This document shows, in pieces, positions 9,312 through 31,977 of a DNA stretch of 64,000 bases. The notes under the pieces are model-generated. The model had not been told where the DNA came from. It searched no databases and saw nothing but the letters and a program-made list of their open reading frames with translations. Each line of letters begins with the position of its first letter. Position 1 is the stretch's first letter. The stretch spans positions 52,611-116,610 of the forward strand of contig JAPPJZ010000062.1 in assembly GCA_028874365.1 (NCBI GenBank), read 5' to 3'. The position numbers were made by a program, and so were the translations under genes. Origin of the DNA: Chloroflexota bacterium (GTDB lineage Bacteria > Chloroflexota > Dehalococcoidia > Bin125).

Positions 9312-12300
9312 CTACGCCGCCAGTCTGAGCGCACCGTGCAGCTCGATCCGCCGCAGGAACCACAGGAACGCGCCCAGATTGAGCGCAAACAGCGCTGACA
9401 ACGCGCCAAACAGGATGCCAACCCCCGGCCAGTCGATGATGAACTGCAGCGCCGGCACCACATCCCGACCATCCGGCGTGAGCGCGAAGAAGTCCAACAG
9501 CACCGCGCCCGCCTGCGTCCCCACGATCAGTCCCGCTCCCAGTCCAATCGCGATGATGATCAGTTGCTCCAGCGCGATCAATCCCAGAATCTGGCGCATG
9601 CTCATCCCGACGCTCTGACACACGGCAAACTCCACCCGTCGCGCCTGCGCTGTCACTGCGGTCAGCACCACCAGACCGAACGCCGACGCGATCGCCACCG
9701 CCGCCAGCGCGCCGATGAAGACCCCATTCCACGAAGCGACGATCAGCGGGTCGGCCGCCAGTTCCTCCCGGGCGCTCTCGATCGTGGCGATGCCATCGCT
9801 CTCGATCGGCAGCTCGTACCTGGCCAATAGACCGCCCCAGCGCTGCAGCGACGCCGACGCCCACAGTTCGTTGCTCACGGCCAGCGCCACGCCGGCCGCG
9901 GCGCTGCCATACAGCCGATCGATGAATGCCGCGCGATCGATCAACACGAGCGGATCATCGCGCTGCGGGTCGTAGCTCGGGAACGTCTCAAACTGCCCGC
10001 CGACGAGGAACGTCATCGAGGATGGCCCGATCCGCAGTTTGACCGTCTCGCCGATGTTGAGCCGTCCCTGTGCGATGGCCTCCGCCGAAAACAACGCCGG
10101 CAACGGGCCCCGATCCGCGATGTAGCGCACCCCGCGCAGCGACGATGGGATCGCATTCCAGCGATAGCGCGCCTCTGTTTCGGTGACGACGAAGAAGTCG
10201 AGCGGCTCCTCGCCGACCTCCAGGGGCGTCGCCTCCCAGCGTCCTGAGCTGAAATCGGCCAACAGGTAGCTCTCGCCACGCCGGGCGTAGCTCAGATCGC
10301 CAAGCAAGATTTCTCCCCCGGCGCGTGTGAGCGCCAGGTCAAGCGACACCAGTGTCAGTGGCGCGACTGGACGCTCAGCCACCGTGGGGCTGAACCTGCT
10401 TTGCCCCTGGATCAGCCGAGCGCCCTCCAGAGGCAGATAGGCCGCCGGTTCCTCCGTTAAGCGGTTCGAGATCGTGATCCACTCCGGATCTTCTTGAACC
10501 TGAGTGGGACTGAGCGTGTCAATCGCATACCACCAGTAACGTCCGATCGCGTCCAGCACCTTGATGCCGATCACGGTCTCCTGCTCGAGCTGCACAACCG
10601 CAATCCGTAGCTCCAGCAGGCCCCCAAAATCGTCGATCACCGCTCCCTGGACTTCGTTAAGCGGTACCGCAATCTGCTGCAGGTCCGCCGGCGGCAACGC
10701 CCAGTCAGCCCCTTGTTCGGCCAGCTGATCGGCAACCACCTCGGAGTCCAACGCAGCGATCTGCAGATGACCCGAGTCTTCATCCCCTTCGAACGCCCCC
10801 ACGATCCGCTTGATCTGTGCCACCGATGCACCGCTGGCGTCCTCAATCGCCTCATATTGAACAATGTCCGAGACCGGCTCGGTCAGCCGTACCGACGCGC
10901 CCACCGCGTGCAGCGAACGATCGTTGTAAGACGTGTCGAGCGTCGTCCGGAACGAGGCCGCAAACACCGCCAGCGCACCCGCGATCGTCAGCAACAGCAC
11001 CGTCCGCGCGTAGTGCGTCGGTGTGCGACCCAGATACCAGGCGCCCATCAGCAGCGTCAGCGAGCGCCAGGGCGACGCAAGCCGGGCCAGCAGCCGCATC
11101 GTCGGTGGGAACAAGCGCAGCACGATTAGCCCAACCACGAACAGCAACACGGTCGGCGTCGCGACCGCCAGCCAGTCCAGCCGCGTCTCACCGACCAACG
11201 GCGAATCGATCGGATCGCCGGCCCATTGCAGTTCGAAGATCAGCAGAGCGCCCAGCGCTGCTACAGCCGCGTCGATCAGGGCGCGCTGCGTCCATGATGC
11301 GGGCGGCCGACCGCGCTCCCGGCGGGTCGTGACCATCGTCTGGCGAGTCGCCCGGTACGTCGGCACTGCCTGAGCCAGCAGCGCCAGCACCCCTGCGCCC
11401 ACGGCCAGGTACCACGACTCGACCGGCAGCGAGACCGGCAGGAACGGACCCGCGCCGGTAGCGGCCAGCGCCTCATCGAAGGGCGGCACGAACCCCAACA
11501 GACTGACCAGCCCCATGCCGATCAGCGGCCCCAGCAATATCGCCGGAGCGGTCAGAATCGCAGCCTCGACGATGTGCATCACGGCGACATCGCGCTGCCG
11601 GGCGCCTCGCGAACGTAGCCAGGCCGTGTCCTCGGTGCGTTGCTCGGCGAGCATCGCCGATGCCACCACCGCATAGACCAACACCGCGCCCACGAGCTGC
11701 AGCACGATCATCAATAGCGTCGACTGGGCAAACTGGAAGCGTTGGCTGAACCCGACCAGCGTGTCGACCAGTTCCGTCTCCTGCTGGATACCGTCCACGG
11801 ACTGCGAGATTCGCCGAGTCATCTGCTCCAGCGAATCGGCCGCCGCAGACGCTTCCGCCGCCGACGCGCCGTGCAAGTCGGTCCGGAACCGCTGCAGCAA
11901 CGACAGACGCAACGTGGGCGACTGCTCGGCCAGAATGCCGAGAATCCCCTCCCGCGTGGTCCAGAACCGCAGTTCCGTGTCCAGCGCCGCGATCGGCAGG
12001 AACAGCGGATCGAGCGTTGACCAACGCCGCTCGTCGGTCGACGGCTCGATGATCCCGACAATCCGCACGCGAGTCTCATGCTCGGTGCCCAGCCAAAACG
12101 GTTGCGCCAGTCGTTCGTCTCCAACGTCGAGTCCAAAGTCCTGCGCCTGCCTCCGCTCGACCATCACCTCCAACAGATCAGTCGTTGCCTCCGGTCTACG
12201 GCCGGCCACGACTTCTGAGAGGTCCGCCACATCGCTCTGCGCAACGAACGTGGCGTGATCGGCGTCCGGCGGATCGAACGGCTGCTCCTCGGTTCGCAGG

Positions 12301-15600: not shown

Positions 15601-15901
15601 GACCTGGGAACCGCTCCAGATGCCGCTCGCGGGCTTCCGCCGCTTCTCGCTCGATGCGATCGAAGTCCTCAGCGCTCGCCGGACGGAAGGCCCGCGAATG
15701 GTCCGCGAACGTGGTCCCCCGCGGCGATTGCTCGATCAACTCGCGAAGCGCGAGGTCGGCCGACGCCGCTCGAAAGACGAGCGGCAACGCCACGAGCGCG
15801 GCGGCGATGATCAGCAGCGACGCAGCCCCGAACATCAATAGCCAACCGCCCCGCAGTTCGCGTAGGGCGGCGAGCCTGAGTAGGCGGAAAAGTCCAAGCA
15901 T
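12659..15901 (-). CDS. ABC-transporter permease, FtsX-like double-domain, 1080 aa
   Basis: Same architecture as neighbour; C-terminal FtsX ...MRTVGSGRAGLTAQAAVE...; start overlaps the stop of the downstream gene (translational coupling). Confidence 0.8.
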   Translation of the reverse strand: MLGLFRLLRLAALRELRGGWLLMFGAASLLIIAAALVALPLVFRAASADLALRELIEQSPRGTTFADHSRAFRPASAEDFDRIEREAAEARERHLERFPGLASDTRRIMETPETFAGFTRLDNGLNESLLAYLMSFEQLRTNARLVRGDWAGSADEVVIGARLAEQLSIDVGSVVSFSEAMQFEISGIIEPVVDDVTRVLAFHYTDVWFELQFDITLGGAEVPYFGMFAEPDALERLGAPVTHRMRTELDTGAINSDQVEAVIESLGAWQQQLSRLEGGSAGTLLVGTLQTFVRQAQFSAGQSLLAGLQIAAVAMFGVALVGRVMAQRTRVDRERLAARGAKPWQQAGAQAMLGGVAALPAAILGAPLAAFALSHAGRLEAVARVSGGEPFDTRLTAEAWGLAVAGAVIAWIAFAAPAWFDARQRTNERVAQGRPQRQSLVQRAWLDVALLALATVLFLQFETEASGGALAAFESGGINPVLMLSPGLLLLGAALTIMRVAPRVWGFAAALLSRSPIPSWLYLGVLSVARNPTGPMLLTALVAFITAVGLISATYASTIRTVERSRIEYEVGSDLRGVSIGGNLSNSTVGRVTEPLQSRQGISAAAAYRGIGAIGGDREGSRVVLLGLQTSRLSEIVALDEDLLGTPPDELLAAIEREPGRAGQELPDGAEALTVRVRSNPGNSNLELAARVLDARGQVHMRPFRTNTASVVDGDWNTFRAPLGGLEQPLRIAAIILRPQARVVRAPTGTLYMDDLNAQVGEQSVAVDAFDEAGPWLPASGGAGEDRISFEGGGLRYHWSQLAASDERIIVRESPNLPVNAAMDRTSMETANLSVGDIVPIGVSNATIPVRIQSAVDYFPTLNPAQGGFLIVDLLALRGAALVAAVQAVLPITEVWTATESNAGRLIAAELLDDVYLSSTVFDAEAKIVAAEEDPFRSGGAAALFVVGFIGLLIVGSAALIFTLAAAGGERAREFALMRTVGSGRAGLTAQAAVEVGLVLAAGVALGFGLGRAVAGALLAFLDVTAEGVAAAPPTVLSIDWVLAGIGVGVIVLCAVLGTTAISRWATGREAAPLLREGAD

Positions 15902-16093
15902 GATGCTGCAATGCTACGACTGGCCGTACTGTTGAACGCCTCCGGCTCCTCGGTCTGCCCTTCGGTTGCCGCTGAGCCGATGGGCGCTTAGCCTGCACCT
16001 AACTAGTTCGTCCGCTCGGTCGTTGGGCGGAACGCCCGCACACCCCTTCCGAGCCGAATCAACATCGCCGGAACCACCGTCAGGAGCACGTGT

Positions 16094-16882
16094 ATGACGA
16101 CACAGACAGAAACGCACTCACAGATCGCCGTCGAGGTCTCCGGCCTCAAGGTCAACGCGCTCCAGGACGGCAGCGGACCCAACATCGTCGTCCTGCACCA
16201 CTCCACCGGCCCCGGCTGGATCCCGTTCTACGACCTCCTGGCCCAGAATCACACCGTCACCGCTATCGACATGCCCGGCTACGGGCAGTCCGAGCGCCCG
16301 GTCTGGGCTCGTCACCCGCGCGACATCGCCATCATGCTGCACAGCGCCATCCACAAGATGGGCATCGACACTGACGCCAACCTCGTCGGCATGGGCTTCG
16401 GCGGCTGGGTCGCGGCCGAGCTCGCCTGCATGCATCTGCATGGTCTCGACAGCCTCACCCTGATTGGCGCAGCCGGCGTCCAACCCGACGAGGGCGAAAT
16501 CGCCGACGTGATCTTCTACGAGTTCGAGGAGTACGTGAAGCTCGGCTTCTCCTCCGACGAGGCCTACGCCGACATCTTCGGCGACGAGGCCGCCCCCGAA
16601 CTGAAGGAGCTCTGGGACTTCTCGCGCGAGATGACCGCGCGTCTGACCTGGAAGCCCTGGATGTTCAACCGCCAGCTCCCGCATCTGCTCACCGAGCTCG
16701 AGACGCCGACCCTGCTGCTCTGGGGTGAAAACGACCGAGTCGTCCCACACGGTGTCGCCGAGGTCTACGACGCCAGCCTGCCCAACAGCAGGCTCCAGGT
16801 GCTCGAAGGGCTCGGCCATCTCGTCGAACTCGAAGACGCCCAGGCCACGGCCGACGCCGTGATCGCGCACATCAGCTCGTAG
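16094..16882 (+). CDS. alpha/beta-fold hydrolase
   Basis: HG-type oxyanion region VVLHHSTGPG, nucleophile elbow GMGFGG, SD GGAG 8 nt upstream. Confidence 0.8.
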   Translation: MTTQTETHSQIAVEVSGLKVNALQDGSGPNIVVLHHSTGPGWIPFYDLLAQNHTVTAIDMPGYGQSERPVWARHPRDIAIMLHSAIHKMGIDTDANLVGMGFGGWVAAELACMHLHGLDSLTLIGAAGVQPDEGEIADVIFYEFEEYVKLGFSSDEAYADIFGDEAAPELKELWDFSREMTARLTWKPWMFNRQLPHLLTELETPTLLLWGENDRVVPHGVAEVYDASLPNSRLQVLEGLGHLVELEDAQATADAVIAHISS

Positions 16883-16990
16883 CGAGGCAGACGATAGAGG
16901 CGTGACGCTTCGCCGTCACGTATCATCTTGAGGAACGTACAACCGGCTCGCGCAACCGCACCCTGAGCCGGAGGAACAGGAACCGAAACC

Positions 16991-18286
16991 ATGTTCATTG
17001 GCTACTTCACGGAACGTCCCTACCAGGACTTCGAATCGGGCTGGGTCGGAGCGACCGGCCGCGAAATCGAGGACCTCGGGATGACCAATGGGGATTACGA
17101 CCCCCGGATCGGCGCCGAGCTCTACAACCGCTACCTCGACGAGAAGGTCTACGCCGAGGAGATGGGCTTTGACGGCCTGATGCTCAACGAGCATCACTCC
17201 ACCCCGTTCTGCATGGGCGGCGTGATGAACGTCGAAGCCGCGATCCTCGCCCGGATCACCAAGCGCGCCAAGATCGTGCTGCTCGGCAACGTCCTCCCGA
17301 TCTGGGAAGACCCTCTGTGGCTGGCCGAGGAACTGGCCGAGATCGACATGATCTCCCGGGGCCGCCTGGTTACGGGTTGGGTCCGCGGCACCGGCCGCGA
17401 ATCGGTTGCCCACAACTCGCAGGCGCCCTTCAACTGGGAGCGCTTCCAGGAAGCCCACGACTTCGTCGTCAAGGCCTGGTCGACCCCCGGCCCCTTCCGC
17501 TGGGAAGGCGAGCACTACCAGTACCGCTACGTCAACCCCTGGGCGCGCCCCTACCAGGAGCCGCACCCCCAGATCTGGATCCCTGGCGTGATGTCGCGTA
17601 ACACGGTCAAGTGGTGCGCCGAGCATCGCTACCCCTACGTCATGCTCGCCACCGAGATCGAGCCGACCAAGAAGTCGTTCGACTACTACGATGAGGTCGC
17701 GCAGGAAAACGGCTACGAGGCCTCGACCGAGCACCACGGCTACCTCTTCAAGGTCCACGTCGACGAGACCGAAGAACTGGCCGAGGAAGCCGGCCGCAAG
17801 TACATCTCCGGACCGGCCAACCCGTTCCTCGAGGGCAACCAGGGCACCGTCCGCAGCAACCTGCAGAACCTGCCCGGTCTGACTTCGCGCACCCAGCTCC
17901 TGCCGACCGTCAGCACCTTCGCTGCCGCCGCGCGTGGACGCCAGGAGGAACAGAAGGCGGCCCTCGCAGAGAAGGAAGCCGAAACCGACAAGCGCGACGC
18001 CGACGCCTTCGGCACCTACGAGGAACAGGTCAACAAGTACTCCATCATCACGGGTACCCCCAAGACCGTGATCCCCAAGATCCGCCACGTCCTTGAAGAG
18101 CTGCGCCCCGGCAACATCTTCTTCTGGGACGGCGACGGCGCCATGAACCACGACGACGCGATGCGCTCCCTCCGCCTCTTCGGCGAGGAAGTCATCCCCG
18201 CCGTCCGCGAAATGGGCAAGGAACTCGATCTCAAGGGAGCCTTCGAGGTCAACACCCTCACCGGAGACCCAATGTCCGGCGACTAA
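16991..18286 (+). CDS. LLM-class flavin-dependent oxidoreductase (luciferase-like monooxygenase)
   Basis: TIM-barrel LLM signature GFDGLMLNEHH, 431 aa. Confidence 0.85.
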   Translation: MFIGYFTERPYQDFESGWVGATGREIEDLGMTNGDYDPRIGAELYNRYLDEKVYAEEMGFDGLMLNEHHSTPFCMGGVMNVEAAILARITKRAKIVLLGNVLPIWEDPLWLAEELAEIDMISRGRLVTGWVRGTGRESVAHNSQAPFNWERFQEAHDFVVKAWSTPGPFRWEGEHYQYRYVNPWARPYQEPHPQIWIPGVMSRNTVKWCAEHRYPYVMLATEIEPTKKSFDYYDEVAQENGYEASTEHHGYLFKVHVDETEELAEEAGRKYISGPANPFLEGNQGTVRSNLQNLPGLTSRTQLLPTVSTFAAAARGRQEEQKAALAEKEAETDKRDADAFGTYEEQVNKYSIITGTPKTVIPKIRHVLEELRPGNIFFWDGDGAMNHDDAMRSLRLFGEEVIPAVREMGKELDLKGAFEVNTLTGDPMSGD

Positions 18287-18311
18287 TCTCGCACCCGGTT
18301 CGACCAACAGA

Positions 18312-18350
18312 GACCCGCGCCCCCTGCACTGGGGCGCGGGTCTTCTGCGT
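18312..18350 (+). terminator. rho-independent terminator after LLM gene
   Basis: GACCCGCGCCCC-tgcact-GGGGCGCGGGTC followed by TTCTGCGTT, 25 nt after stop. Confidence 0.6.
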
Positions 18351-18355
18351 TAACC

Positions 18356-18525
18356 CCTCCGTCATTCCCCCCTTCTCCCGTCACTCCCGCCTTCTCCTCT
18401 TCATTCCCGCCCTCTCCCCGTCATTCCCGCGAAAGCGGGAACCCATACCGCCGCAGCGAACGGCACCTCCCACCAGAGCCCAATCCCATCCCTCAGTCAT
18501 TCCCGCGCTTGCCGCGGGAATCTCG
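18356..18525. repeat. family-C repeat cluster: 3.5 degenerate ~20-bp tandem units (GTCATTCCCnCC-TTCTCC) followed by two GTCATTCCCGCG hairpin units
   Basis: GTCATTCCCGCG-aaa-GCGGGAAC at 18420-18443 and GTCATTCCCGCG-cttg-CCGCGGGAATCTCG at 18496-18525; a third copy lies at 34777-34808. Confidence 0.7.
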
Positions 18526-18564
18526 CCTTGGTCCGCACCGACCTTCATTCAACTCCCTTTCGGG

Positions 18565-18600
18565 CTCCCTCTCCCTCTGGGAGAGGGTTGGGGTGAGGGC
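18565..18600. repeat. family-B hairpin repeat (CTCCCTCTCCC-tctg-GGAGAGGGttGGGGTGAGGGC)
   Basis: Recurs at 19430, 33176, 50281 and, in reverse orientation, at 51914 and 52003. Confidence 0.7.
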
Positions 18601-18691
18601 CGCCCCTTCCGACAACCACGATACACCAACCACGAACACCCTTTCTGTATAGTGACCAGAACGTACGTTCACGCTCAGAGAGGGTCCGACC

Positions 18692-19387
18692 ATGCACATC
18701 CCACCCAACCAACGTCGACGCGCCATCCAGGGCCACTACCTCCGCCAACGCGGCCACTCGCTGCGCCAGATCGCCGAACAGCAGAACCTCTGCCCCGACA
18801 TCGTCCGCTCCGACCTCAAGCTCGTCGAAACCCATTGGAGCTCGATCGCCGCCGCGGCTGCCGACGACCTTCTGCTCGAATCGCTGCAGCTCCTCAGGAT
18901 CAGGCTCTCGCTCGCCATCAAGAACGACGATGTCTCCAACAACGCCGAACGCCTCACCCCGGTCGAGTACCTCCGTGCACGCGATGCCCAGGAAACCGGG
19001 CTCAACAACCTCGCCCGCGAAATCCGCCGCACCGCCCAGGACGTCCACCGACGAGCCGCACAGCGCGCCGACCAACCCGACCTCTACGACGATGTACCGC
19101 AAGAACCAGGCGAAAACACTCCAGAACTAGTCAAAACTGACCACCCCGATCGCACGATCTCCAGTCCAGAGCAGAAGATCGTCGAATCTAAGCCCCAGCA
19201 AGAAAAAATTCCCGCGGAAACCGCCCACCTGCCCGATCAGCCCGAGTATGACCCTCTGATCGAGGAGGTCTTCAACGAATTCCCCCACCTCAGAGGCCAG
19301 TCAACCGAGCAAATCCTCGCCTTCCTCGACCAACTCACTGATCCCGAAGCATCGGAGCCCGCTGTCTACGCCGAGGCCGCCGGCTAG
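18692..19387 (+). CDS. hypothetical protein with N-terminal HTH; C-terminal half compositionally atypical (lower GC, E/P/Q-rich)
   Basis: RRRAIQGHYLRQRGHSLRQIAEQQNL resembles sigma-70 region 4 or terminase small-subunit HTH; gene is bracketed by repeat clusters. Confidence 0.5.
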   Translation: MHIPPNQRRRAIQGHYLRQRGHSLRQIAEQQNLCPDIVRSDLKLVETHWSSIAAAAADDLLLESLQLLRIRLSLAIKNDDVSNNAERLTPVEYLRARDAQETGLNNLAREIRRTAQDVHRRAAQRADQPDLYDDVPQEPGENTPELVKTDHPDRTISSPEQKIVESKPQQEKIPAETAHLPDQPEYDPLIEEVFNEFPHLRGQSTEQILAFLDQLTDPEASEPAVYAEAAG

Positions 19388-19429
19388 GCCCCCAAAGGCC
19401 CCTCTCTTCTGGTTCCCGCTCCTTCCGGT

Positions 19430-19508
19430 CCCCTCTCCCTCTGGGAGAGGGTTAGAGCCTGCCCCCGCGAAGGCGGGGGGTGAGGGTCCCGCGAAGCCCG
19501 CCCCGCAC
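19430..19508. repeat. composite B+A hairpin repeat
   Basis: CCCTCTCCCTCTGGGAGAGGG + CCCCCGCgaagGCGGGGGG + GGGTCCCGCgaagCCCGCCCC. Confidence 0.65.
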
Positions 19509-19627
19509 CTGATTCCCGATGCCCCGCACTCGATGCGGGGCCCAGACCTCGATGTTCGAGCGCAGCGTCGGCGTCCCGCTCGCCCCTACGCTCTGCCGCA
19601 GGAGCCATCACCATCTACGATCCCACC

Positions 19628-21292
19628 ATGACCCAGCGGATCATCGTCATCGGTGGCGGACCCGGGGGCTCCACCGCCGCCACCCTCCTCGCCCGACAGG
19701 GCTTCGATGTCACCCTCTTCGAGCGCGAAGTCTTCCCCCGCGAACACGTCGGTGAGTCACTCCTGCCCGCCTCGATCCCCATCCTCGAAACCCTCGGCGT
19801 CATCGACGAGATCGAGGCCGCCGGTTTCACTCCCAAGTACGGAGCGACGATGGTCTGGGGGCGAGAACCGGAGCCCTGGTCCTGGCATTTCGCCGAGACC
19901 AACGCCAGCTATCCCCACGCCTACCAGGTCTGGCGCCCGACCTTCGACCAGATGCTCCTCCGCAATGCCGAGCGCAACGGCGTATCGGTCCACGAGGGTT
20001 GCCGAGTCGTCGATGTCAGCCTCGATGAGACCGACCCCTCATCGGTGACGGTGGAATCAGCAAACGGAGAGACTCAAGCCCACGAAGCCGAATGGATCGT
20101 CGACGCCAGCGGCCAGAACGGCTTCCTCGCTCGCCGACTCGACCTACGCGTCAACGACGAGTTCTTTCGCAACCTGGCCGTCTACAGCTACTTCCGCGGC
20201 GCCGATCGCCTCCCTGAACCCGACACGGGCAACATCTTCATCGAGGCCTACGAACACGGCTGGTCCTGGGCCATCCCCCTGCCCGACGACGTCATGTCCG
20301 TCGGAGTCGTCGTCGACGCGGCCTGGGGAGGCTCCAAACTCAACGAAGCGCCGACCGAGGAGTTCTACCGCCGGCAGCTCTCGATGACCCAGCGCACCGC
20401 CGCGATGCTCAGGCCGTCCCGGATGATCGACGACCCGCGCGTCATCCGCGACTGGTCGTACACCTCGCAACGCCTCGTCGGCGACGGCTACATCCTCGTC
20501 GGCGACGCCGCCTGCTTTATCGACCCGCTCTTCTCCTCCGGCGTCCACCTGGCGCTGTCTTCGGCGGTCCTCGCCTCGGCCTACGTGACGTCGGCCCTGA
20601 GAGATCCCGAAATGCGCGAGCCCGCCGCCGAGGTCTACACCCAGCTCTACATGCAGCAGTACCACCAGTTCCGCGAGATGGCCGCCCTCTTCTACGCGTC
20701 CAATCGCACCTCCGACTCCTACTTCTGGGAGGCCCGGCGCATCACGCAAAGCGCGGACGATGTCTCACCGCGCGAAGCCTTTATCGCCGCCGTCGCCGGA
20801 CAACCGCCCCAAGGCTACGAGCGCGTCGTCCTCGAACGAGGCGAAGCGCCCCCCGACTTCGTCGAAGGGGTCGCCGCCGTCGAAACCGAGCGCGCCGAGC
20901 GCGACGCCGAAATGACCAAATTAATCGATTCTGCCTGGCCCGATCGCAGCCCAATGCTCGACGCCGTCCCCGCGCTCGCTCCGGGCGTCACGCTGGCCCG
21001 CAAGCCCGTCGTCGGCGATGGACAGTTCGAGTGGGGAGCCGTGATCTCCTCGTCGACGCGCCCCCAGGGAGCCCCAATCTCGACGCTGATCGCCGCCCTC
21101 GCCACCCGAATCGACGGCCAGCGGCCGGTCCGTGTTCTCCTCGACGACCTCCTCGAAGGAGTCGAACCCCGCCAGCGAGCCCAACTCCTCCCCGGCCTCC
21201 TCACCGCCCTCCGCGTCCTCTACGTCGACGGAATGATCGCACGTTGGACTCCTGCGCAAGACCCTCAAGTACCTTCCTCCCCCCGAGAGTGA
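19628..21292 (+). CDS. FAD-dependent halogenase (tryptophan-halogenase family) with ~140-aa C-terminal extension
   Basis: GGGPGGS dinucleotide motif, halogenase signature GWSWAIPL (WxWxIP), GDAACFIDPLFSSGVH; 554 aa. Confidence 0.8.
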   Translation: MTQRIIVIGGGPGGSTAATLLARQGFDVTLFEREVFPREHVGESLLPASIPILETLGVIDEIEAAGFTPKYGATMVWGREPEPWSWHFAETNASYPHAYQVWRPTFDQMLLRNAERNGVSVHEGCRVVDVSLDETDPSSVTVESANGETQAHEAEWIVDASGQNGFLARRLDLRVNDEFFRNLAVYSYFRGADRLPEPDTGNIFIEAYEHGWSWAIPLPDDVMSVGVVVDAAWGGSKLNEAPTEEFYRRQLSMTQRTAAMLRPSRMIDDPRVIRDWSYTSQRLVGDGYILVGDAACFIDPLFSSGVHLALSSAVLASAYVTSALRDPEMREPAAEVYTQLYMQQYHQFREMAALFYASNRTSDSYFWEARRITQSADDVSPREAFIAAVAGQPPQGYERVVLERGEAPPDFVEGVAAVETERAERDAEMTKLIDSAWPDRSPMLDAVPALAPGVTLARKPVVGDGQFEWGAVISSSTRPQGAPISTLIAALATRIDGQRPVRVLLDDLLEGVEPRQRAQLLPGLLTALRVLYVDGMIARWTPAQDPQVPSSPRE

Positions 21293-21300
21293 GGGCCAAT

Positions 21301-21356
21301 CCCCTCTCCCCCCGCCGCAGGCGGGGGGAGATGTCCCGTAGGGACAGAGGGGGGCA
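21301..21356. repeat. family-A nested-hairpin repeat
   Basis: CCCCTCTCCCCCCGC-cgcag-GCGGGGGGAGATG-tcccgtaggga-CAGAGGGGGGCAC. Confidence 0.75.
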
Positions 21357-21412
21357 CGCCGCGCGCCAACCCTTAGAATCGTGCCAACCTCGGTTGTAAG
21401 GCGGGCAGCGAC

Positions 21413-21964
21413 ATGACCACAGCCAAATCCCGGACTTCGGGCCGAATCGAACAACTCAACGTCTCACCTGGCGGCGTGCCCAAGCGTGCCGTCCCCGAAG
21501 CCGTCGTCAACGAGTACGGCCTCACCCAGGACCGACAGCGCGACCGCCGCCACCACGGCGGCACCGAGCGCGCCGTCTGCCTGTTCTCTGCCGAAATCCT
21601 CGACAGTCTCCGCGCCGACGGCCATCAGATCGGCCCCGGCACAACCGGCGAGAATGTGACCATACGCGGCATCGACTGGAAAAAGCTCGTCCCCGGCTCG
21701 CGCGTTCACCTCGGCGAACAGGTCATCGTGGAGGTCACCTCCTACGCCGCCCCCTGCCGGATCATCGCCCACTGCTTCCGCGACGGCGACTTCAACCGCA
21801 TCAACCAGGCCACGCATCCAGGACGTTCCCGCCTCTACGCACGCGTCGTCCGGCAGGGGACCATGTACCCGGGCGACGACGTCACAATCGAGGCTGACTC
21901 GGCCGCCGACCGAGGCGCTCGACTACAACCCAAAACCACACGTTGGCGTCCGCCCTCGAGCTGA
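21413..21964 (+). CDS. MOSC-domain protein (YiiM-like)
   Basis: GENVTIRGID and surrounding beta-barrel pattern; 183 aa. Confidence 0.7.
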   Translation: MTTAKSRTSGRIEQLNVSPGGVPKRAVPEAVVNEYGLTQDRQRDRRHHGGTERAVCLFSAEILDSLRADGHQIGPGTTGENVTIRGIDWKKLVPGSRVHLGEQVIVEVTSYAAPCRIIAHCFRDGDFNRINQATHPGRSRLYARVVRQGTMYPGDDVTIEADSAADRGARLQPKTTRWRPPSS

Positions 21965-22096
21965 TTTCCTCCCCCCGGAATCCGTAGCGCCGTTGCAATC
22001 AATGGCGCCTGCGCAGTGATACTCTGCGCGCACGCGAATACGAATGTCCAATCGAGAGAACGCGACTCGCCAGGTCTTTGGAACGGGAGCAGAACG

Positions 22097-22702
22097 ATGA
22101 CCACCGAAGCATCCGCCCGCCAGGCCGCCCTGATCGCACGGCGATACCCCAGTCGCGCCACCCTACGCGGCGGCCGCGAGATCGACATGCGCCTGATGGC
22201 CCCCGCCGACAAGGCCCGCTTCCTCGCCTTCGCCCGCTCGCTCTCACGCGACGACTTGCTCTACCTGCCCTGGGACATCACCGACGAAGGCGTGGTTGAC
22301 CGCTGGCTGGAGAACATCGCCGAACATCGCACCACTACCGTCCTTGCCGTGGACTCCGGAGACATCGTCGGCGAGGCGTCGTTGGTCCACAACGAAGCGG
22401 GCTGGACCGACCACATCGGAGAAATCCGCGTCACCGTCAACTCCCAGATCCGCGGCCAGGGTCTCGGCCGATTCCTGGCCGAGGAGATCTTCGCCATCGC
22501 CGACTCCATCGGCCTCGAGCGCATCTCCGCCCGCATGACCCACGATCAGCTCAGCGCGCAGGCCGTGTTCGAGTCTCTCGGCTTCCAGGCCGTCGCGACC
22601 CTGCCCGGCTGGGTCATGGACCGCAGCGGCCGTCTCCGCGACCTCGTCGTCATGGCCTACGACCTCCGCGCCCGAGGCGCTCCCACCTCCGCCCAACGCT
22701 GA
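22097..22702 (+). CDS. GNAT-family N-acetyltransferase
   Basis: Acetyl-CoA pocket IRGQGLGRFL; start MTTEAS at 22097 with GGGAGC SD. Confidence 0.75.
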   Translation: MTTEASARQAALIARRYPSRATLRGGREIDMRLMAPADKARFLAFARSLSRDDLLYLPWDITDEGVVDRWLENIAEHRTTTVLAVDSGDIVGEASLVHNEAGWTDHIGEIRVTVNSQIRGQGLGRFLAEEIFAIADSIGLERISARMTHDQLSAQAVFESLGFQAVATLPGWVMDRSGRLRDLVVMAYDLRARGAPTSAQR

Positions 22703-22756
22703 AGCTTGTCGCTGCCGCTCTCCCTGCGCAGCGGGCGTTTCGCCGACCTCCCCGTT

Positions 22757-22807
22757 CCCCTCTCCCCCCGCGCAGCGGGGGGAGATGCCGAAGGCAGAGG
22801 GGGGCAC
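22757..22807. repeat. family-A nested-hairpin repeat (identical to copy at 38691)
   Basis: cccctctccccccgcgcagcggggggagatgccgaaggcagaggggggcac, 51/51 identical to 38691-38741. Confidence 0.8.
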
Positions 22808-22915
22808 ACCAACACGCGCTGATGCTGCGCTGTCCTCACAGGCGCCCGCCCGCCCCCACGCTTCCGCCATTGCACCTATCCTGTCGGGACAACCCATGGC
22901 ACGACAGGACCTCCG

Positions 22916-24283
22916 ATGACCACCCCGACCCAGGAAGCGCTACGCAAGCAATCGCTGGAACACCTCTGGATCCCCACCCAGTCGCACGCCGACCTCGCGG
23001 CCGACGATGGATTGCTGGTCATCCGTAAAGGCGAAGGAATCTTCCTGCACGACGACCAGGGACGCGAGTACATGGACGCCATGTCCGGTCTCTGGCTCAA
23101 CGCGGTCGGACACGGTCGCACCGAACTCGCCGACATCGCACATGAGCAGATGTCGCAACTCGCTTACCAGAACACCTTCGCCTACGCCTCCGAGCCGGCC
23201 GTCAACCTGGCCACCAAGCTCGCCGAACTGACGCCCTCAAACATTCGCAAGGCCGTCTTCGTCAACGGCGGATCTGAAGCCGTCGAAACCGCTCTCAAGA
23301 TCGCCAAGCAGTACCACCGCATCCGAGGCAACGCCGCCAAGTTCAAGGTGATCTCGCGGATCGGTTCCTACCACGGCCAGACCGCCGGCGCGCTCTCGGT
23401 CAACGCCGCAACCTACTCAATGCGCGCCCCCTACGAGCCGCTGGTGCCGGGCTCGATCCACGTGCCCGGCGTCAACTGCGACCGTTGCCCCTACGAAAAG
23501 ACCTTCCCCGAGTGCGACGTCTTCTGCGCGCGCACCATCGAGGATGTCGTGACGGCGGCCGGCCCCGACACGGTCGCGGCGATCATCGCCGAGCCGATCT
23601 CCACTGCCAACGGCAGCTACGTCCCCGACCGGAAGTACTGGCAGACGCTGCGCGAGATCTGCGACAAACATGACATCGTGCTGATCGCCGACGAGGTGAT
23701 CAATGGCTTCGGCCGCACCGGCAAGTGGTTCGGCATGGACCACTTCGGCGTCCAGCCCGACATCATGACCACAGCCAAGCAAATCTCATCCGGCTACTCG
23801 CCCATTGCCGCCACGCTCGTCAGCGATGAAATCGCCAAGACCTTCGAAGAGGCCGGCAAGGACGGCACGATCGGCGGGATCACCTGGGGCGCAAACCCCG
23901 TCTCCTGCGCCGTCGCGCTCGGCAACCTCAACATCATCGAACGCGAGGGTCTCGTCGAGAATTCCGCCCGCGTCGGCGAGCACGTACGCTCCCGACTCGT
24001 GCAACTGCGCGAGGAGCATCGCACGATTCACCACACTCGCGGGATCGGCATGATGCACGTCGTCGAGCTAAAGAAGGATCCGCTGACCGGCGAGGACTTC
24101 GACGAAGCCGACAACGTGCAGGCGCGGATGACCCAGTACATGAGGGACGAAGGCGTCCTCGCACGGGCCGGTACCTCGGTTCCGTTCGCCCCGCCGCTGA
24201 CCACCAACCTCGAAGAGGCCGACGAGTTGGTCAACCGCATTTCCCGCTCAATCGCGAGGCTCGAATCCGAGTTGGGTCTGTAG
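22916..24283 (+). CDS. class-III (omega-type) PLP-dependent aminotransferase
   Basis: VNGGSEAVE, DEVINGFGRTG, K-containing TTAKQISSGY; 455 aa. Confidence 0.85.
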   Translation: MTTPTQEALRKQSLEHLWIPTQSHADLAADDGLLVIRKGEGIFLHDDQGREYMDAMSGLWLNAVGHGRTELADIAHEQMSQLAYQNTFAYASEPAVNLATKLAELTPSNIRKAVFVNGGSEAVETALKIAKQYHRIRGNAAKFKVISRIGSYHGQTAGALSVNAATYSMRAPYEPLVPGSIHVPGVNCDRCPYEKTFPECDVFCARTIEDVVTAAGPDTVAAIIAEPISTANGSYVPDRKYWQTLREICDKHDIVLIADEVINGFGRTGKWFGMDHFGVQPDIMTTAKQISSGYSPIAATLVSDEIAKTFEEAGKDGTIGGITWGANPVSCAVALGNLNIIEREGLVENSARVGEHVRSRLVQLREEHRTIHHTRGIGMMHVVELKKDPLTGEDFDEADNVQARMTQYMRDEGVLARAGTSVPFAPPLTTNLEEADELVNRISRSIARLESELGL

Positions 24284-24379
24284 GGAGAACTGAAAACCCG
24301 CAAGCCGCCTGAGCGCAGCGCCCGCCGGTCGAGAGCACAGCGGGCCGCGGTCAGGCGGCGTGTCTGTGGTCGGGAAGCG

Positions 24380-24715
24380 CTAGAACGTACTCAGCGCGCC
24401 GGGGCGGTCGTCGTGGATCGGAATAATCTCCGCGAAACCGGAGAACTTGAACACTTCCTGGATGTGATCCTGCACCGCACAAAGCGCAAGTTGGCCGGCC
24501 GACTGACTGGTTCGCTTGGCGGCCATCAAGAGGACCCTGAGCCCGGCCGAGGAGATGTAGTTGATCCCCTCGAAATTCATCAAGATCTGATTGTCCCCCG
24601 CGTCGATTCGGCCGAGTAGCGCCTCTTCGAACGCCTTCGCATTGGTCCCGTCGATTCGTCCGAGCGGGTTCAGCACCAGCACGCTGTCGTCGTATTCCGG
24701 GTAAAGGTCAACCAT
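24380..24715 (-). CDS. STAS-domain anti-sigma-factor antagonist (SpoIIAA/RsbV-like)
   Basis: 111 aa; phospho-acceptor region INYISSAGLRVLL. Confidence 0.8.
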   Translation of the reverse strand: MVDLYPEYDDSVLVLNPLGRIDGTNAKAFEEALLGRIDAGDNQILMNFEGINYISSAGLRVLLMAAKRTSQSAGQLALCAVQDHIQEVFKFSGFAEIIPIHDDRPGALSTF

Positions 24716-24754
24716 CAGTCGTCTCCTCTATCGGCCTGAAGCGGCGTGACTAGC

Positions 24755-26803
24755 TTATTCCGAATCATCCTCAGACGTCGCCCGCGTTTGTCTCAACGTC
24801 GTGACATTGCGGTCATCAATCCGCTCGTAGTTTACCGCATCGAATGTCGATGCAATCAGCTGCAGGCCGAGTCCACCGATCGGCCGCTCGAGCAGGTCCA
24901 ACTCCGTGTCCTGCCCCGTCGCCTCCAGCGGATTGAATGCGGGGCCGTTGTCCTCGTAGCGAACCACGATCGTCTCGCCTTCCCGGCGCATCGCGATCGA
25001 GATGTCCGCTTCGTTCTCTCGACCCGGGAACCCATGCTCGATCGTGTTCGTGAACAGCTCGTCCAGCGCCAGGTTGATCCGATACAGCTCCATCGGATCG
25101 AACCCCTCTGTTTCGGCGAACCGCTCAACGAAGGCGGCTACCCGCGGGAGCGACGTCTCCAGAGTCGGCTGTACCACCATGCGCCGCCATCCCGACGCCA
25201 GGTGCGTCTCACCGCGCCCTGGGATGAACGGCTCTTCAAGCGCCCCGCCGACGAACTGAACCGCCATACACGTAATGTCGTCGAACTGCTTGGCGTCGCC
25301 CGAGAACGTGCGCAGGTCGGTCAGCACCGACTCCATCAGCTCCTGCGGGCCCTCACCGTTGAGCCCGGCGAGCTTCTCTTCCAGCCGCTCCCGACCGAAC
25401 TGCTGCCCGGCAACGTCCTCCGCCTCCGTGATTCCATCGGTGTAGAGGAACATCGACGCCCCTTCATCGAGCGGAATCGTCGTCTCCGTGTAGTTGAGCT
25501 CCGGCAGCACGCCGAGCGCGATCCCGCCGGTCATCGGGATCATCTCCGGCCCCTCATTCGGGCGCATCAGGTACGGCGGATCGTGGCCCGCATTCACATA
25601 GGTCAGCGTGCCCAGCTCCAGATCAATCACACCGAAGAACGCCGTGATGAAGAGTTCCTTCGGATTCATCGAGCAGAGCTGGTCGTTCGTCTCGGCAACG
25701 GCCATGCTCGGGTCGGCATGCTGATTCGCCGCGCTCCGCAACAGCGCGCGTCCAACCGCCATCATCAACGCCGAGGCCACGCCCTTGCCCGACACGTCCG
25801 CGATCGCGAACGCCAGGTGCCCGTGATCGGTGATGAACGCGTCGTAGAAGTCGCCGCCCACATCCAGCGCAGGCGTCATGAACGCGGCTACGCCGGCGCG
25901 CGGATCTTCCGGCAGGTCCGACGGCACCAGCGCCGCCTGCACCGAGTGCGCCATCTCCAGGTCGTTGCGAATCTCGCGCTGCGCATCCTCAAGCGCCTGG
26001 TTCTTCTCCGACAACTCAACCGTGCGCTCCTCGACGATCGCATTCAGTCTGATCTCACGTGCGCCGACCTCGCGAGCCATGTCCAGGAACACGCCCGCCA
26101 GCTCCCCGTACTCGTCGCGCGTCAACGATGTGTTCCGCAGCGATGCAGCGACCGACGGTTCCGGTTGCTGCCCGTCTTCGACCGCCCGCGCGGCGCGAAC
26201 CATCAATCCAATCGGGCGCGCCAGCCGCTTGGCCAGGAACCAACTGGCCAGCACCAGCAGCAGCAGCAGGGCGATCACCCCGATCAGGTACTCGAGCCGG
26301 TACAGATCGAAGTGATTGCCGATGTGATTGCTCGTGAACTCGACCCTGACCGCACCGAGAGGACTACCGTCCTCGGCGCGGATCGCCGCCGTCCCGGCGT
26401 AGCGACCGTCGGTCAGCGCCTCGACGACCGCTCCGTCGCCGCCCTCCATCGCCTGGCGCGCACTTGCCACCTCAGTCCGACTGATCGGTCGCGAGCCGTC
26501 CGAGGACGCCGCAAGCCGCGCCTGCACATTGAACACCCAGATGTTGTCCAGGTCGACGGCTTCCCCCTCGACGTCAGCCGCGGAAGCCGCGTTCAAACGA
26601 ATCAGTGCGTTGACTTCATCTTCGCTCAGCGACGCCAGGTCGGCTTCCAGCAGCGAACGCGCAATCGCCTCGGCAAAGACCTCTGCCGACTTGCGTCCCG
26701 TGTCACCCTCTGAATCCAGCGCAAGCAGCAGCAGCACGACTGCCGAAGCGATCACCCCGGCGAGCGTCAGGACGGAGATCATGCCGACGATGCGCCCAGC
26801 CAT
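24755..26803 (-). CDS. membrane sensor PP2C (SpoIIE-type) phosphatase fused to C-terminal GHKL/RsbW-like serine kinase domain
   Basis: TM1, ~150-aa outside loop, TM2+HAMP, PP2C (DVSGKGVASALMM...YVNAGH...LYTDGITEA), then HATPase_c (LALDELFTNTIEHG). Confidence 0.8.
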   Translation of the reverse strand: MAGRIVGMISVLTLAGVIASAVVLLLLALDSEGDTGRKSAEVFAEAIARSLLEADLASLSEDEVNALIRLNAASAADVEGEAVDLDNIWVFNVQARLAASSDGSRPISRTEVASARQAMEGGDGAVVEALTDGRYAGTAAIRAEDGSPLGAVRVEFTSNHIGNHFDLYRLEYLIGVIALLLLLVLASWFLAKRLARPIGLMVRAARAVEDGQQPEPSVAASLRNTSLTRDEYGELAGVFLDMAREVGAREIRLNAIVEERTVELSEKNQALEDAQREIRNDLEMAHSVQAALVPSDLPEDPRAGVAAFMTPALDVGGDFYDAFITDHGHLAFAIADVSGKGVASALMMAVGRALLRSAANQHADPSMAVAETNDQLCSMNPKELFITAFFGVIDLELGTLTYVNAGHDPPYLMRPNEGPEMIPMTGGIALGVLPELNYTETTIPLDEGASMFLYTDGITEAEDVAGQQFGRERLEEKLAGLNGEGPQELMESVLTDLRTFSGDAKQFDDITCMAVQFVGGALEEPFIPGRGETHLASGWRRMVVQPTLETSLPRVAAFVERFAETEGFDPMELYRINLALDELFTNTIEHGFPGRENEADISIAMRREGETIVVRYEDNGPAFNPLEATGQDTELDLLERPIGGLGLQLIASTFDAVNYERIDDRNVTTLRQTRATSEDDSE

Positions 26804-31841: not shown

Positions 31842-31893
31842 CCTCCCCTCGCGTCAGCGGGGGGAGGTGTCCCGTAGGGACGGAGGGGGGCAC
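31842..31893. repeat. family-A nested-hairpin repeat
   Basis: cctcccctcgcgtcagcggggggaggtgtcccgtagggacggaggggggcac. Confidence 0.7.
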
Positions 31894-31977
31894 TGCCCGT
31901 GGACTTGTTGGCGTCGCGCCGCTCCTCGGCCGTCCCCCTCTGTCTTCTGCATCGCCCCGTACGGGCAGAATCCGAAC

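Follow-up and report, generated by a model that had tools for sequence, protein, structure and literature searches.

The closest described relative of the 554-aa protein analysed here is the chloramphenicol halogenase CmlS (PDB 3i3l), in which a flavin monooxygenase domain is followed by a C-terminal winged-helix domain. CndH, PltA, Mpy16 and Bmp2, the carrier-protein-dependent "variant B" halogenases, fall in the same sequence clade. These enzymes are encoded in NRPS/PKS clusters beside carrier proteins, and carrier-tethered substrates are the targets of CndH, PltA and Mpy16 (PMC4227530). The superfamily also includes QhpG, LodB and GoxB, halogenase-like enzymes that hydroxylate peptidyl-tryptophan, and the peptide halogenases SrpI and MibH have been described as lacking an embedded RRE (PMC10858898). 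With regard to gene context, luciferase-like monooxygenases (LLM; FMNOs) followed by esterases have been proposed as a catabolic theme of SAR202 bacteria (Landry et al. 2017, PMC5395668).

The window examined here, a 64-kb stretch of DNA, derives from a sponge-symbiont Chloroflexota genome. It encodes, in this order and all on the forward strand, an alpha/beta hydrolase, an LLM, orf231, the halogenase, a MOSC protein, a GNAT acetyltransferase and a class-III aminotransferase (Table 1). The original prediction concerned positions 18692 to 24283, and the ORF listing placed five same-strand ORFs there at the coordinates given; the prediction had passed over one of them, orf231. Its family assignments of the halogenase, MOSC, GNAT and aminotransferase genes were each backed by Pfam. 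The GNAT gene most likely starts at ATG 22097, preceded 8 nt upstream by GGGAG and in agreement with the public gene call; a start at GTG 22016 was set aside in its favour.

Table 1. Coordinates of the features discussed, as positions within the window
Feature	Position	Strand	Evidence or remark
Alpha/beta-fold hydrolase, 262 aa	16094..16882	+	First gene of conserved cassette; Pfam Abhydrolase_1 3e-19
Luciferase-like (class C flavin) monooxygenase (LLM), 431 aa	16991..18286	+	Pfam Bac_luciferase 2.6e-34
Strong terminator-like hairpin 3' of LLM gene	18311..18343	+	14-bp G+C stem
A-type repeat CCCTCTCCCTCTGGGAGAGGG + GGGGTGAGGG, left flank of orf231 insertion	18559..18600	.	Direct repeat family D7, inverted repeat I9
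orf231, multi-copy lineage-specific HTH-type gene, outside cassette	18692..19387	+	Homolog distribution
A-type repeat + GC hairpin, right flank of orf231 insertion	19423..19490	.	Repeat and folding scans
Flavin-dependent halogenase, CmlS/CndH clade, 554 aa	19628..21292	+	Pfam Trp_halogenase 2e-46
GxGxxG FAD-binding motif, GGGPGG, residues 9-14	19652..19669	+	Invariant in 58 homologs
K70 codon, putative chloramine-forming catalytic lysine	19835..19837	+	Aligns with CmlS K71, CndH K76
WxWxIP motif, GWSWAIPL, residues 211-218	20258..20281	+	W212, W214, I216, P217 invariant
C-terminal winged-helix domain, PqqD/RRE-like fold, residues about 446-542	20963..21253	+	
B-type compound hairpin repeat, halogenase-MOSC spacer	21303..21358	.	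Repeat scan, folding
MOSC-domain protein, 183 aa, YiiM-like	21413..21964	+	Pfam MOSC 6.5e-20
GNAT acetyltransferase, 201 aa	22097..22702	+	Pfam Acetyltransf_1 8.6e-12
B-type hairpin repeat, GNAT-aminotransferase spacer	22757..22810	.	Repeat scan
Class-III (omega) aminotransferase, 455 aa	22916..24283	+	Pfam Aminotran_3 2.4e-101
Long imperfect hairpin between convergent aminotransferase and STAS genes	24301..24362	.	Inverted repeat I22; -49.7 kcal/mol, z -2.6

Family, catalytic residues and fold of the halogenase

The 554-aa protein matched the Pfam family Trp_halogenase with 159 bits (cut-off 21). Among PDB sequences its best match was CmlS (6e-91 over residues 3-397), followed by CndH (4e-87), FasV (1.5e-72) and PltA (3e-55), with ChlB4 and Mpy16 also found; PrnA and RebH matched at only about 1e-7. 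In these sequence matches the protein groups with CmlS, CndH and PltA and not with PrnA/RebH. The motifs that had been predicted were found at their places, FIDPLFSSG at residues 297-305 in addition to the two in Table 1, and the WxWxIP and FxDPxFSxG signatures are common to the protein and the variant B enzymes.

We have also examined the catalytic Lys/Glu pair. K70 aligned with CmlS K71 and CndH K76, which we take to be the catalytic lysines of these enzymes, and E43, D275 and Y345 aligned with CmlS E44, D277 and Y350. Podzelinska and colleagues reportedly assigned roles to CmlS E44, K71, D277 (covalent FAD) and Y350 in 2010. All four residues of our protein, together with WxWxIP and FxDPxFSxG, were unchanged in all 58 homologs compared, whose identity goes down to 53%. 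The family match and the conserved lysine bear out the call of a flavin-dependent halogenase, and the protein looks like one of the CmlS/CndH type that would probably be halogenating.

A flavin monooxygenase that acts on a small molecule and has lost the halogenase chemistry was weighed as an alternative. Genes for an LLM, a hydrolase, a cyclase and an SDR form a context that looks catabolic, and hydroxylases occur among relatives of the same superfamily. Nor is WxW diagnostic by itself, since the monooxygenase QhpG has it too (PMC7876137). However, no family member departs from K70, E43 or any part of the WxWxIP motif, and every one of the closest relatives with a solved structure is a halogenase, which makes such a loss unlikely.

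The AF2 model of the halogenase (pLDDT 84, pTM 0.84) had CmlS as its top Foldseek match (E 4e-42, 554 aligned columns, TM 0.74), in keeping with a two-part architecture shared by both proteins. Sequence similarity to the Pfam family and to CmlS stops at residues 380-397 and leaves about 155 residues, close to the roughly 140 extra C-terminal residues that had been predicted. This extension is not peculiar to the protein; it is a family-wide domain at the same position as the winged-helix domain of CmlS. In the model, a low-confidence linker (362-395) and then helices precede the domain, which was confidently modelled with a PqqD/RRE-type winged-helix fold. It showed no sequence similarity to PqqD and no Pfam hit at E<=10, and a profile search with it returned halogenase family members only. 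The solved CndH chain, in contrast, aligned over only 420 columns and so offers no counterpart to this domain.

The RRE-like fold, together with an NCBIfam QhpG (peptidyl-Trp dihydroxylase) model that spans residues 5-519 and reaches 221 of the 240 bits set as its cut-off, would suit a peptide- or protein-modifying flavoenzyme. Such an enzyme would be an RRE-docking peptidyl halogenase or a QhpG/LodB-like hydroxylase, acting on an unrecognised peptide or on a neighbour protein such as the LLM. We consider this improbable. The QhpG score stays below the cut-off and the PDB QhpG chain matched at only 7e-12, whereas CmlS and CndH matched far better, the catalytic lysine is invariant, and CmlS, which is not thought to act on peptides, has a domain at the same position. 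The missing sequence link to PqqD argues in the same direction. Moreover, no conserved short ORF adjoins the halogenase gene, the LLM-halogenase gaps being mostly 64-240 nt, and neither a precursor peptide near the gene nor a radical-SAM, YcaO, lanthipeptide or other RiPP enzyme in the conserved neighbourhood was found. The qhpC/qhpD and lodA/goxA genes are likewise absent here.

Conserved and incidental neighbours

We have compared 160 related loci overall, 74 of which are genome loci with less than 75% halogenase identity (distant loci), and have run a reciprocal test on metagenome loci anchored on the LLM. The LLM was present in 47 of the 74 distant loci, and in 42 of 65 evaluable ones its gene preceded the halogenase gene by no more than 3 kb in the same orientation, the gap being below 400 nt in 27. 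This association covers deep branches of the halogenase tree, and the median identity across distant loci was 68% for the LLM vs. 54% for the halogenase. The reciprocal search found the halogenase directly downstream of the LLM in 28/50 loci. The hydrolase gene preceded the LLM gene in 29/74 distant loci and in 42/61 LLM-anchored metagenome loci. Hence, the best-conserved neighbour of the halogenase is the LLM, which, like the hydrolase, lies upstream of the start of the range originally predicted. About a third of the family lacks the LLM and occurs in other contexts, for example with xanthine-dehydrogenase-like, thiamine-diphosphate enzyme or FGE-sulfatase-like genes.

The best PDB match of the LLM was the LuxA-type alkanal monooxygenase 8cbb (2e-21), and the hydrolase gave sub-threshold NCBIfam matches only, to enol-lactonase/C-C hydrolase types (PcaD, HsaD, BphD, MenH). 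The pair resembles the SAR202 FMNO-esterase scheme in combining a class C LLM with an alpha/beta hydrolase in Dehalococcoidia/SAR202 genomes. The scheme, however, has no halogenase, and the LLM of the cassette is one orthologue, strongly conserved at 65-81% identity and nearest to LuxA-type enzymes among solved structures. The hairpin that follows the LLM gene folds with -33.5 kcal/mol (z -5.45), and at the same place three related loci (L003, L007 and L017) have hairpins followed by T-tracts. Given this terminator-like hairpin, LLM and halogenase may not be co-transcribed, and their conserved adjacency points to a common pathway only indirectly.

The downstream genes behaved differently. MOSC was found in 12/74 distant loci and directly downstream in 9/63 evaluable ones, in several separate clades; GNAT and aminotransferase were each found in 0/74. 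The four genes had been proposed to tailor jointly one amino-bearing small metabolite, and indeed they share a strand, are separated by short spacers and are syntenic in L003-L008 and L083. GNAT and aminotransferase, however, are found with the halogenase only where the halogenases are 79-90% identical to that of the window. In the LLM-anchored set, too, both are confined to near-identical loci, which for GNAT are L083 and L084. In close relatives the whole 20 kb is syntenic, including unrelated genes for an FtsX permease, STAS, SpoIIE phosphatase, thioesterase and NIPSNAP. As unrelated genes to either side are syntenic too, the synteny reflects recent common ancestry and not selection for linkage. 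GNAT and aminotransferase are therefore neighbours through recent synteny only, and co-conservation was kept in part by MOSC alone. Joint tailoring is largely refuted by comparative genomics, and we hold it to be extremely improbable. The label "sulfur-carrier-like" was also a poor fit for the YiiM-type MOSC protein, which matched the NCBIfam 6-hydroxyaminopurine reductase weakly (39 bits, cut-off 294).

As predicted, the window ORFs tested include no NRPS, PKS or carrier protein, and none was present among the conserved neighbour clusters inspected in the 160 related loci. This bears on a carrier-protein-dependent halogenase serving an NRPS/PKS encoded elsewhere in the genome. Closeness to CndH, PltA and Mpy16 would favour such an enzyme, and PKS clusters do occur in sponge SAR202 genomes (PMC6306507). 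Unlike those enzymes, however, the family was not seen beside carrier protein, adenylation or ketosynthase genes in the 160 loci, nor were such genes among the window ORFs tested, and it is present in >588 Dehalococcoidia species genomes, free-living SAR202 lineages included, which renders a tethered substrate very unlikely.

Intergenic repeats and the orf231 insertion

The A-type repeat was found in both spacers flanking orf231, and the B-type repeat (CTCTCCCCCCGC..GCGGGGGGAGA) in the halogenase-MOSC and GNAT-aminotransferase spacers. The MOSC-GNAT spacer (21965-22096) has neither, contrary to the prediction that every spacer carries one. The window holds 12 copies in total, none within the larger ORFs listed; this is far above chance, with 0 expected in shuffles (for the A-type, 5 copies vs. 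0 expected). The halogenase-MOSC spacer folds into a Y shape (-67.5 kcal/mol, z -3.7). Separate termination of the genes had been proposed, but the repeats do not show it: they are no canonical terminators and have no T-tracts, and the terminator scan gave 1 site vs. 5.6 expected.

L003, L004 and L006 also have B-type copies 3' of their halogenase genes, and the GNAT-aminotransferase spacer of L003 has an A-type copy where the window has a B-type one. The repeats resemble REP/MITE elements in being short, G+C-rich, structured, multi-copy and confined to spacers between larger ORFs, at positions that vary among close relatives; in contrast to such elements, the window sequences match no Rfam family and have no associated transposase. 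They are window-wide intergenic REP-like elements, not particular to the halogenase stretch.

The orf231 product had no match in Pfam, NCBIfam or PHROG, and the gene was missing from all 80 genome loci. Its homologs (213, all source-named ones from Chloroflexota MAGs) include several paralogs on the same contig, and some of them match HTH families of Pfam weakly. In the window, orf231 is inserted between LLM and halogenase and is no member of the cassette.

Proposed role of the halogenase cassette

The halogenase lies outside any recognisable biosynthetic gene cluster, and its cassette has no biosynthetic core genes. A free substrate, as originally predicted, is plausible, given that the 160 loci examined show no conserved carrier protein close to the gene. 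We favour, as the rather probable reading, a CmlS/CndH-clade halogenase of phenol, pyrrole or enolate groups in an ancient hydrolase-LLM-halogenase cassette, whose composition makes a free small molecule handled by both upstream enzymes the most likely substrate.

By homology with the CmlS/CndH clade, reduced FAD, O2 and halide would yield hypohalous acid, which Lys70 would capture and deliver to an electron-rich carbon of a phenol, pyrrole or enol held beneath the C-terminal winged-helix lid. FAD is perhaps covalently bound via D275, as in CmlS; no flavin reductase is encoded near the halogenase. The free small molecule would be processed oxidatively by the LLM and hydrolytically by the alpha/beta hydrolase. 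The cassette, at whose 3' end some clades have a MOSC protein and others a cyclase-family hydrolase, is ancient and widespread in Dehalococcoidia, spanning SAR202, Tepidiformaceae and sponge symbionts.

Identity and domain structure of the halogenase

The 554-residue protein encoded downstream of a luciferase-like monooxygenase (LLM) gene is a flavin-dependent halogenase, as its Pfam score, matches to solved structures, motifs, lysine K70 and fold all indicate. It scored 159 bits against Pfam PF04820 (cut-off 21), and its best sequence matches among solved structures were CmlS (6e-91) and CndH (4e-87), followed by FasV, ChlB4, Mpy16 and PltA. We have modelled the protein with AlphaFold2 using a 58-sequence alignment (pLDDT 84, pTM 0.84, confident except for the linker 362-395), and the top 11 Foldseek matches of the model in the PDB were all halogenases. 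The three motifs on which the original prediction was based were found in place, the FAD-binding GxGxxG motif as GGGPGG (residues 9-14), the WxWxIP motif within GWSWAIPL (211-218; W212-S-W214-A-I216-P217) and FIDPLFSSG at 297-305.

The same prediction depended on a catalytic Lys/Glu pair, which is retained in part. The HOCl-capturing lysine is present, with K70 aligning with CmlS K71 and CndH K76 in HMMER alignments; the PrnA-type glutamate has no counterpart in this clade, and it is the CmlS-type glutamate that is found. Residues E43, D275 and Y345 align with E44, D277 and Y350 of CmlS, whose roles have reportedly been described by Podzelinska et al. 2010, D277 being said to form the covalent flavin link. 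K70, E43, D275, Y345 and the motifs were invariant across the alignment of 58 homologs, with identity down to 53%. A main rival explanation is that the protein is a non-halogenating monooxygenase. The WxWxIP motif alone would be insufficient to decide this, since QhpG, a non-halogenase, also has two Trp two positions apart (Trp181 and Trp183; PMC7876137); the invariant K70, the structural matches and the fold argue for a halogenase.

Judged by sequence similarity, this halogenase belongs to the phenol/pyrrole/enolate clade, because CmlS, CndH, FasV, ChlB4, Mpy16 and PltA are its best matches and PrnA and RebH reach only ~1e-7. The match to PrnA, a tryptophan halogenase of variant A, was confined to residues 3-61 (E 6e-8), and that to RebH (3.6e-7) contained no single stretch significant by itself. 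Tested for PrnA/RebH-type membership through full-length similarity, the Trp-binding module and the catalytic glutamate (E346 of PrnA), the halogenase failed. It also missed the cut-off of the CmlS equivalog NCBIfam NF033113 (369.5 vs. 900 bits), covering only profile positions 3-396 of 570.

The identical sequence is public as 'MAG: tryptophan 7-halogenase [Chloroflexota bacterium]', a name that many relatives share and that was taken over from the Pfam family name. We consider it a misnomer, as the sequence speaks against membership of the Trp halogenases. The public copy lies on the 149-kb contig ROBB21-1_SAMN13943214_METAG-scaffold_156, and its ROBB21-1 prefix presumably marks it as one of the sponge-microbiome MAGs of Robbins et al. 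2021. It is only from this reading of the prefix and from sponge-type relatives that we call the host organism a sponge symbiont. A 73%-identical protein, UniProt E0X6N2 ('putative halogenase, uncultured microorganism'), probably originates from the work of Bayer et al. 2013 on sponges. As cited in PMC6644159 and PMC6306507, such PCR/fosmid surveys (Bayer et al. 2013) made the halogenase genes of sponge Chloroflexota candidate sources of brominated sponge metabolites. The uncharacterised clade is already known as sequences, and the 554-residue protein adds a member to a known kind of enzyme with CmlS-type architecture.

Sequence similarity to CmlS and CndH ends near residue 397, and the remaining ~155 residues are kept family-wide, with the motifs VAGQPPQGYERVVLERGEAP, FEWG, IDG and LYVDG. 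Because the Foldseek alignment of the complete model with CmlS spans 554 columns (TM 0.74) and that with CndH only 420, the extension matches the C-terminal winged-helix domain of CmlS in position; the model has a catalytic domain followed by a C-terminal winged-helix domain, as in CmlS. Modelled alone (pLDDT 87), the C-terminal domain had three or four strands and then three helices, matching the PqqD/RRE fold (winged helix, three-stranded sheet, three helices). PqqD membership was not recovered by sequence, the isolated C-terminal 166 residues giving no Pfam match at E<=10. A profile of the domain gave only insignificant matches among PDB sequences (a designed protein, E 0.46; the winged-helix region of QhpG, E 0.53). 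Its 133 matches among 1.84 billion representative proteins were apparently all halogenase-family members or fragments and connected the domain neither to PqqD nor to any other architecture. We regard the extension as a family-wide winged-helix domain of predicted RRE-like fold, in an architecture known from CmlS; the domain might be a lid, or it might provide a docking site.

This fold bears on a second main rival explanation, in which the substrate of the halogenase is a peptide or a protein. The halogenase-like enzyme QhpG, which hydroxylates peptidyl-tryptophan, also has a winged-helix domain (PMC7876137), and the RRE-like fold and the score against the QhpG model NCBIfam NF049967 favour this explanation; the score, at 221.3 bits, stayed under the cut-off of 240. 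Qhp-type genes (QhpC peptide, QhpD radical-SAM) were not recognised among the annotated window neighbours or the inspected conserved neighbour clusters. No conserved small ORF of at least 70 aa was found beside the halogenase, and the LLM-halogenase gaps are short. That the LLM itself would serve as protein substrate, on the model of LodA/LodB, has a low probability.

A conserved hydrolase-LLM-halogenase cassette

The original prediction combined the halogenase with the MOSC, GNAT and class-III aminotransferase genes that follow it into a cluster that could tailor an amino-bearing metabolite. Beyond the aminotransferase, convergent STAS and SpoIIE/HATPase genes are found.

Features of the halogenase region and other window features discussed in the text
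Feature	Position	Strand	Annotation or remark
CLC-type chloride channel	3080-5179	-	CBS and TrkA_C domains
Alpha/beta hydrolase	16094-16882	+	Pfam, NCBIfam
LLM	16991-18286	+	Pfam, NCBIfam
Hairpin 3' of LLM gene	18311-18343		z -5.45
A-type repeat copies flanking orf231	18559-18589, 19423-19453		direct copies
orf231	18692-19387	+	231 aa; no family assignment
Halogenase	19628-21292	+	554 aa; Pfam, NCBIfam
MOSC protein	21413-21964	+	Pfam, NCBIfam
GNAT	22097-22702	+	ATG 22097 most likely start; Pfam, NCBIfam
Class-III aminotransferase	22916-24283	+	Pfam, NCBIfam
B-type repeat copies	21303-21358, 22757-22810, 31842-31900, 38693-38745, 40746-40800, 41113-41170		partial copy at 58624
CoA-transferase and carboxylase genes	52073-57993	+	812 aa, then 1140 aa

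We have scanned for relatives of the halogenase, with one genome per species, and obtained more than 588 loci, nearly all in Dehalococcoidia (SAR202, Tepidiformaceae, sponge MAGs) and a few in Entotheonella and Acidimicrobiia. The best 80 of these loci were searched, within 10 kb on either side, for every protein of the window. The six closest relatives (79-90% halogenase identity) have the entire region in common, down to the genes for FtsX permease, STAS, SpoIIE, thioesterase and NIPSNAP, which is plain synteny of close kin. Among the 74 distant loci (48-57% halogenase identity), GNAT and the aminotransferase were found in none and MOSC in 12, so that co-conservation of the predicted cluster fails beyond close kin. 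The cluster reading fails for two of the three neighbours, and we consider it essentially excluded. MOSC immediately follows the halogenase at 9 of the 63 loci that could be evaluated, and these 9 come from several separate clades.

The neighbours that persist among the distant loci are the LLM (47/74) and the alpha/beta hydrolase (29/74). The LLM gene was located upstream on the same strand within 3 kb in 42 of 65 evaluable loci, 27 of these with a gap below 400 nt, and median identity was 68% for the LLM vs. 54% for the halogenase. De novo clustering of all locus ORFs recovered the same neighbours; at 14 marine loci it also revealed a cyclase-family protein (PF04199) as the next gene downstream. 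In a neighbour-joining tree, the LLM association was spread over deep halogenase branches, a few subclades having moved to other contexts. A reciprocal test, in which an LLM profile was run on metagenome contigs, placed the halogenase directly downstream of the LLM at 28 of the 50 loci that could be evaluated, a further three having it upstream of the hydrolase, and the hydrolase upstream of the LLM in 42 of 61. The hydrolase-LLM-halogenase adjacency is hence conserved in both directions across divergent genomes. Taken together, the neighbour counts, clustering, tree and reciprocal test define a conserved unit of hydrolase, LLM and halogenase, joined by MOSC or the cyclase in part of the family. 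This cassette is widespread in Dehalococcoidia, and we have not found it described in the literature on SAR202 halogenases or on halogenases with luciferase-like monooxygenases.

General synteny as the cause of the adjacency was rejected, since the genes beyond the three- or four-gene block vary between clades.

Variants of this context were also observed. At marine SAR202-type loci (L010, L017, L018, L024, L030, L032, L035, L038, L043, L051, L056), a 310-aa 'putative cyclase' of family PF04199 (kynurenine formamidase / isatin hydrolase) replaces MOSC directly downstream, and may hint at aryl-amide or indole-derived compounds as substrate chemistry. Halogenase subclades without LLM (L021, L031, L037, L040, L053, L062; L026, L027, L042, L057; L046, L074, L078, L081) adjoin other oxidative or catabolic genes, encoding a xanthine-dehydrogenase-like molybdenum subunit and a glyoxalase-fold protein, an FGE-sulfatase-like protein or a thiamine-diphosphate enzyme; no biosynthetic core genes were seen beside the halogenase in these subclades. 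In a single locus, L029 of one Dehalococcoidia genome, a 108-aa ORF (9611-9937, +) between the duplicated LLM and the halogenase resembles, by eye, a stand-alone PqqD-like protein.

As had been noted, no NRPS, PKS or carrier protein was detected among the larger window ORFs tested or the inspected conserved neighbour clusters of the 80 loci. The same search near the halogenase gave no RiPP precursor or maturase and no terpene synthase, and no flavin reductase or RiPP enzyme recurred among the neighbour clusters or occurred among the larger window ORFs tested. The recurrent clusters were instead H+-pyrophosphatase, GMC oxidoreductase, SDR, amidase, alcohol dehydrogenase, cyclase and xanthine-dehydrogenase-like proteins. 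A carrier-dependent halogenase acting in trans is a further main rival explanation; judged by its cassette, the halogenase would more likely have a free small molecule as substrate.

An inserted gene and hairpin repeats

The LLM-halogenase gap measures 1341 nt in the window vs. ~80-240 nt in relatives, because orf231, a gene for a 231-aa, putative HTH-type protein, sits between the two, with a direct copy of the A-type repeat on either side. It was absent from all 80 genome loci. Its 213 homologs form a family of ~203-283 aa, those with a named source being all from Chloroflexota MAGs; several distinct paralogs occur per contig (e.g., five on a 3.49-Mb contig), some with weak N-terminal HTH matches, and searches of orf231 against PHROGs, Pfam and NCBIfam gave nothing significant. 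We conclude that orf231 is a multi-copy, lineage-specific, recent arrival that splits the conserved LLM-halogenase pair, and with its flanking A-type repeats it may constitute a small mobile unit.

The A-type element (five copies in the window) and the B-type element (6-7 copies) are always found between the larger listed ORFs. The B-type element, CCCCTCTCCCCCCGC..GCGGGGGGAGATG..hairpin..AGAGGGGGGCAC, is ~55 nt long and forms a Y-shaped double hairpin within CCCCTCT...AGAGGGG. Substitutions in its second hairpin compensate for one another from copy to copy (GTCCCGTAGGGAC, GTCACGAAGTGAC, GTCTCGTAGAGAC, GCCGAAGGC), a pattern suggesting that the structure is under selection. Repeat positions vary among close relatives, with a B copy in the LLM-halogenase spacer of loci L004 and L006 and, in L003, an A copy at the position of a window B copy.

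These repeats had been thought to occupy every spacer and perhaps to terminate each gene separately. The MOSC-GNAT spacer contains neither type, both elements lack a T-tract, and an intrinsic-terminator scan returned one site vs. 5.6 expected, fewer than in shuffled sequence, which lends no support to separate termination. The sigma-70 promoter scan returned one site vs. 0.8 expected, and Rfam gave no match over 15900-24800 (E<=0.1), which leaves the spacer repeats outside the known RNA families. The A and B repeats are REP/MITE-like elements of the lineage and are uninformative on the transcription of the halogenase stretch.

A different, strong and terminator-like hairpin lies directly 3' of the LLM gene. 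It has counterparts followed by T-tracts in divergent genomes (L003, 9948-9980; L007, ~9890-9925; L017, ~9860-9900), which indicates that LLM and halogenase, although conserved as neighbours, may have separate or attenuated transcription.

Possible substrates and significance

By homology, the halogenase would use FADH2, O2 and halide to generate HOX, which K70 would capture and deliver to an electron-rich carbon. D275 suggests covalently bound FAD, as in CmlS, and Y345 would fit the enolate chemistry that has been proposed for CmlS. The free small molecule favoured as substrate would also be acted on by the class C flavin monooxygenase and the hydrolase. A catabolic scheme has been proposed for SAR202 LLMs and esterases (PMC5395668), without a halogenase; the cassette fits it in general, the halogenase being the cassette's and not the scheme's.

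Two further window features were noted. The CLC-type chloride channel gene, ~15 kb upstream of the halogenase, is possibly linked to its halide supply. A double CoA-transferase family III protein followed by a fused biotin carboxylase-BCCP-carboxyltransferase looks like an acyl-CoA carboxylation module with no relation to the halogenase.

The clade is spread in Dehalococcoidia, including SAR202-type and Tepidiformaceae genomes. Since it is not tied to biosynthetic clusters, is widespread and has LLM and hydrolase as companions, the cassette should guide the substrate search, in place of Trp, indoles or an aminated metabolite; taken at face value, the tailoring-cluster reading would have spent effort on the wrong neighbours. 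New here are the hydrolase-LLM-halogenase cassette, the RRE-like C-terminal fold, the recent insertion of orf231 and the refutation of two of the three proposed neighbours.

A bolder proposal, which we hold to be improbable even with its two versions taken jointly, is that the cassette, in hundreds of Dehalococcoidia/SAR202 species, belongs to an unrecognised halogenation-dependent primary or catabolic pathway, or else contains a peptidyl halogenase recruiting its substrate via the embedded RRE-like domain. In the pathway version, enolate or alpha-carbon halogenation could precede the hydrolysis of C-C bonds in recalcitrant carbonyl compounds, with release of organohalogens. If the enzyme halogenates, the cassette would tie an abundant marine lineage to organohalogen formation, and if either version is true, abundant ocean and sponge Chloroflexota would supply halogenated organic matter by a route other than classical natural-product clusters.
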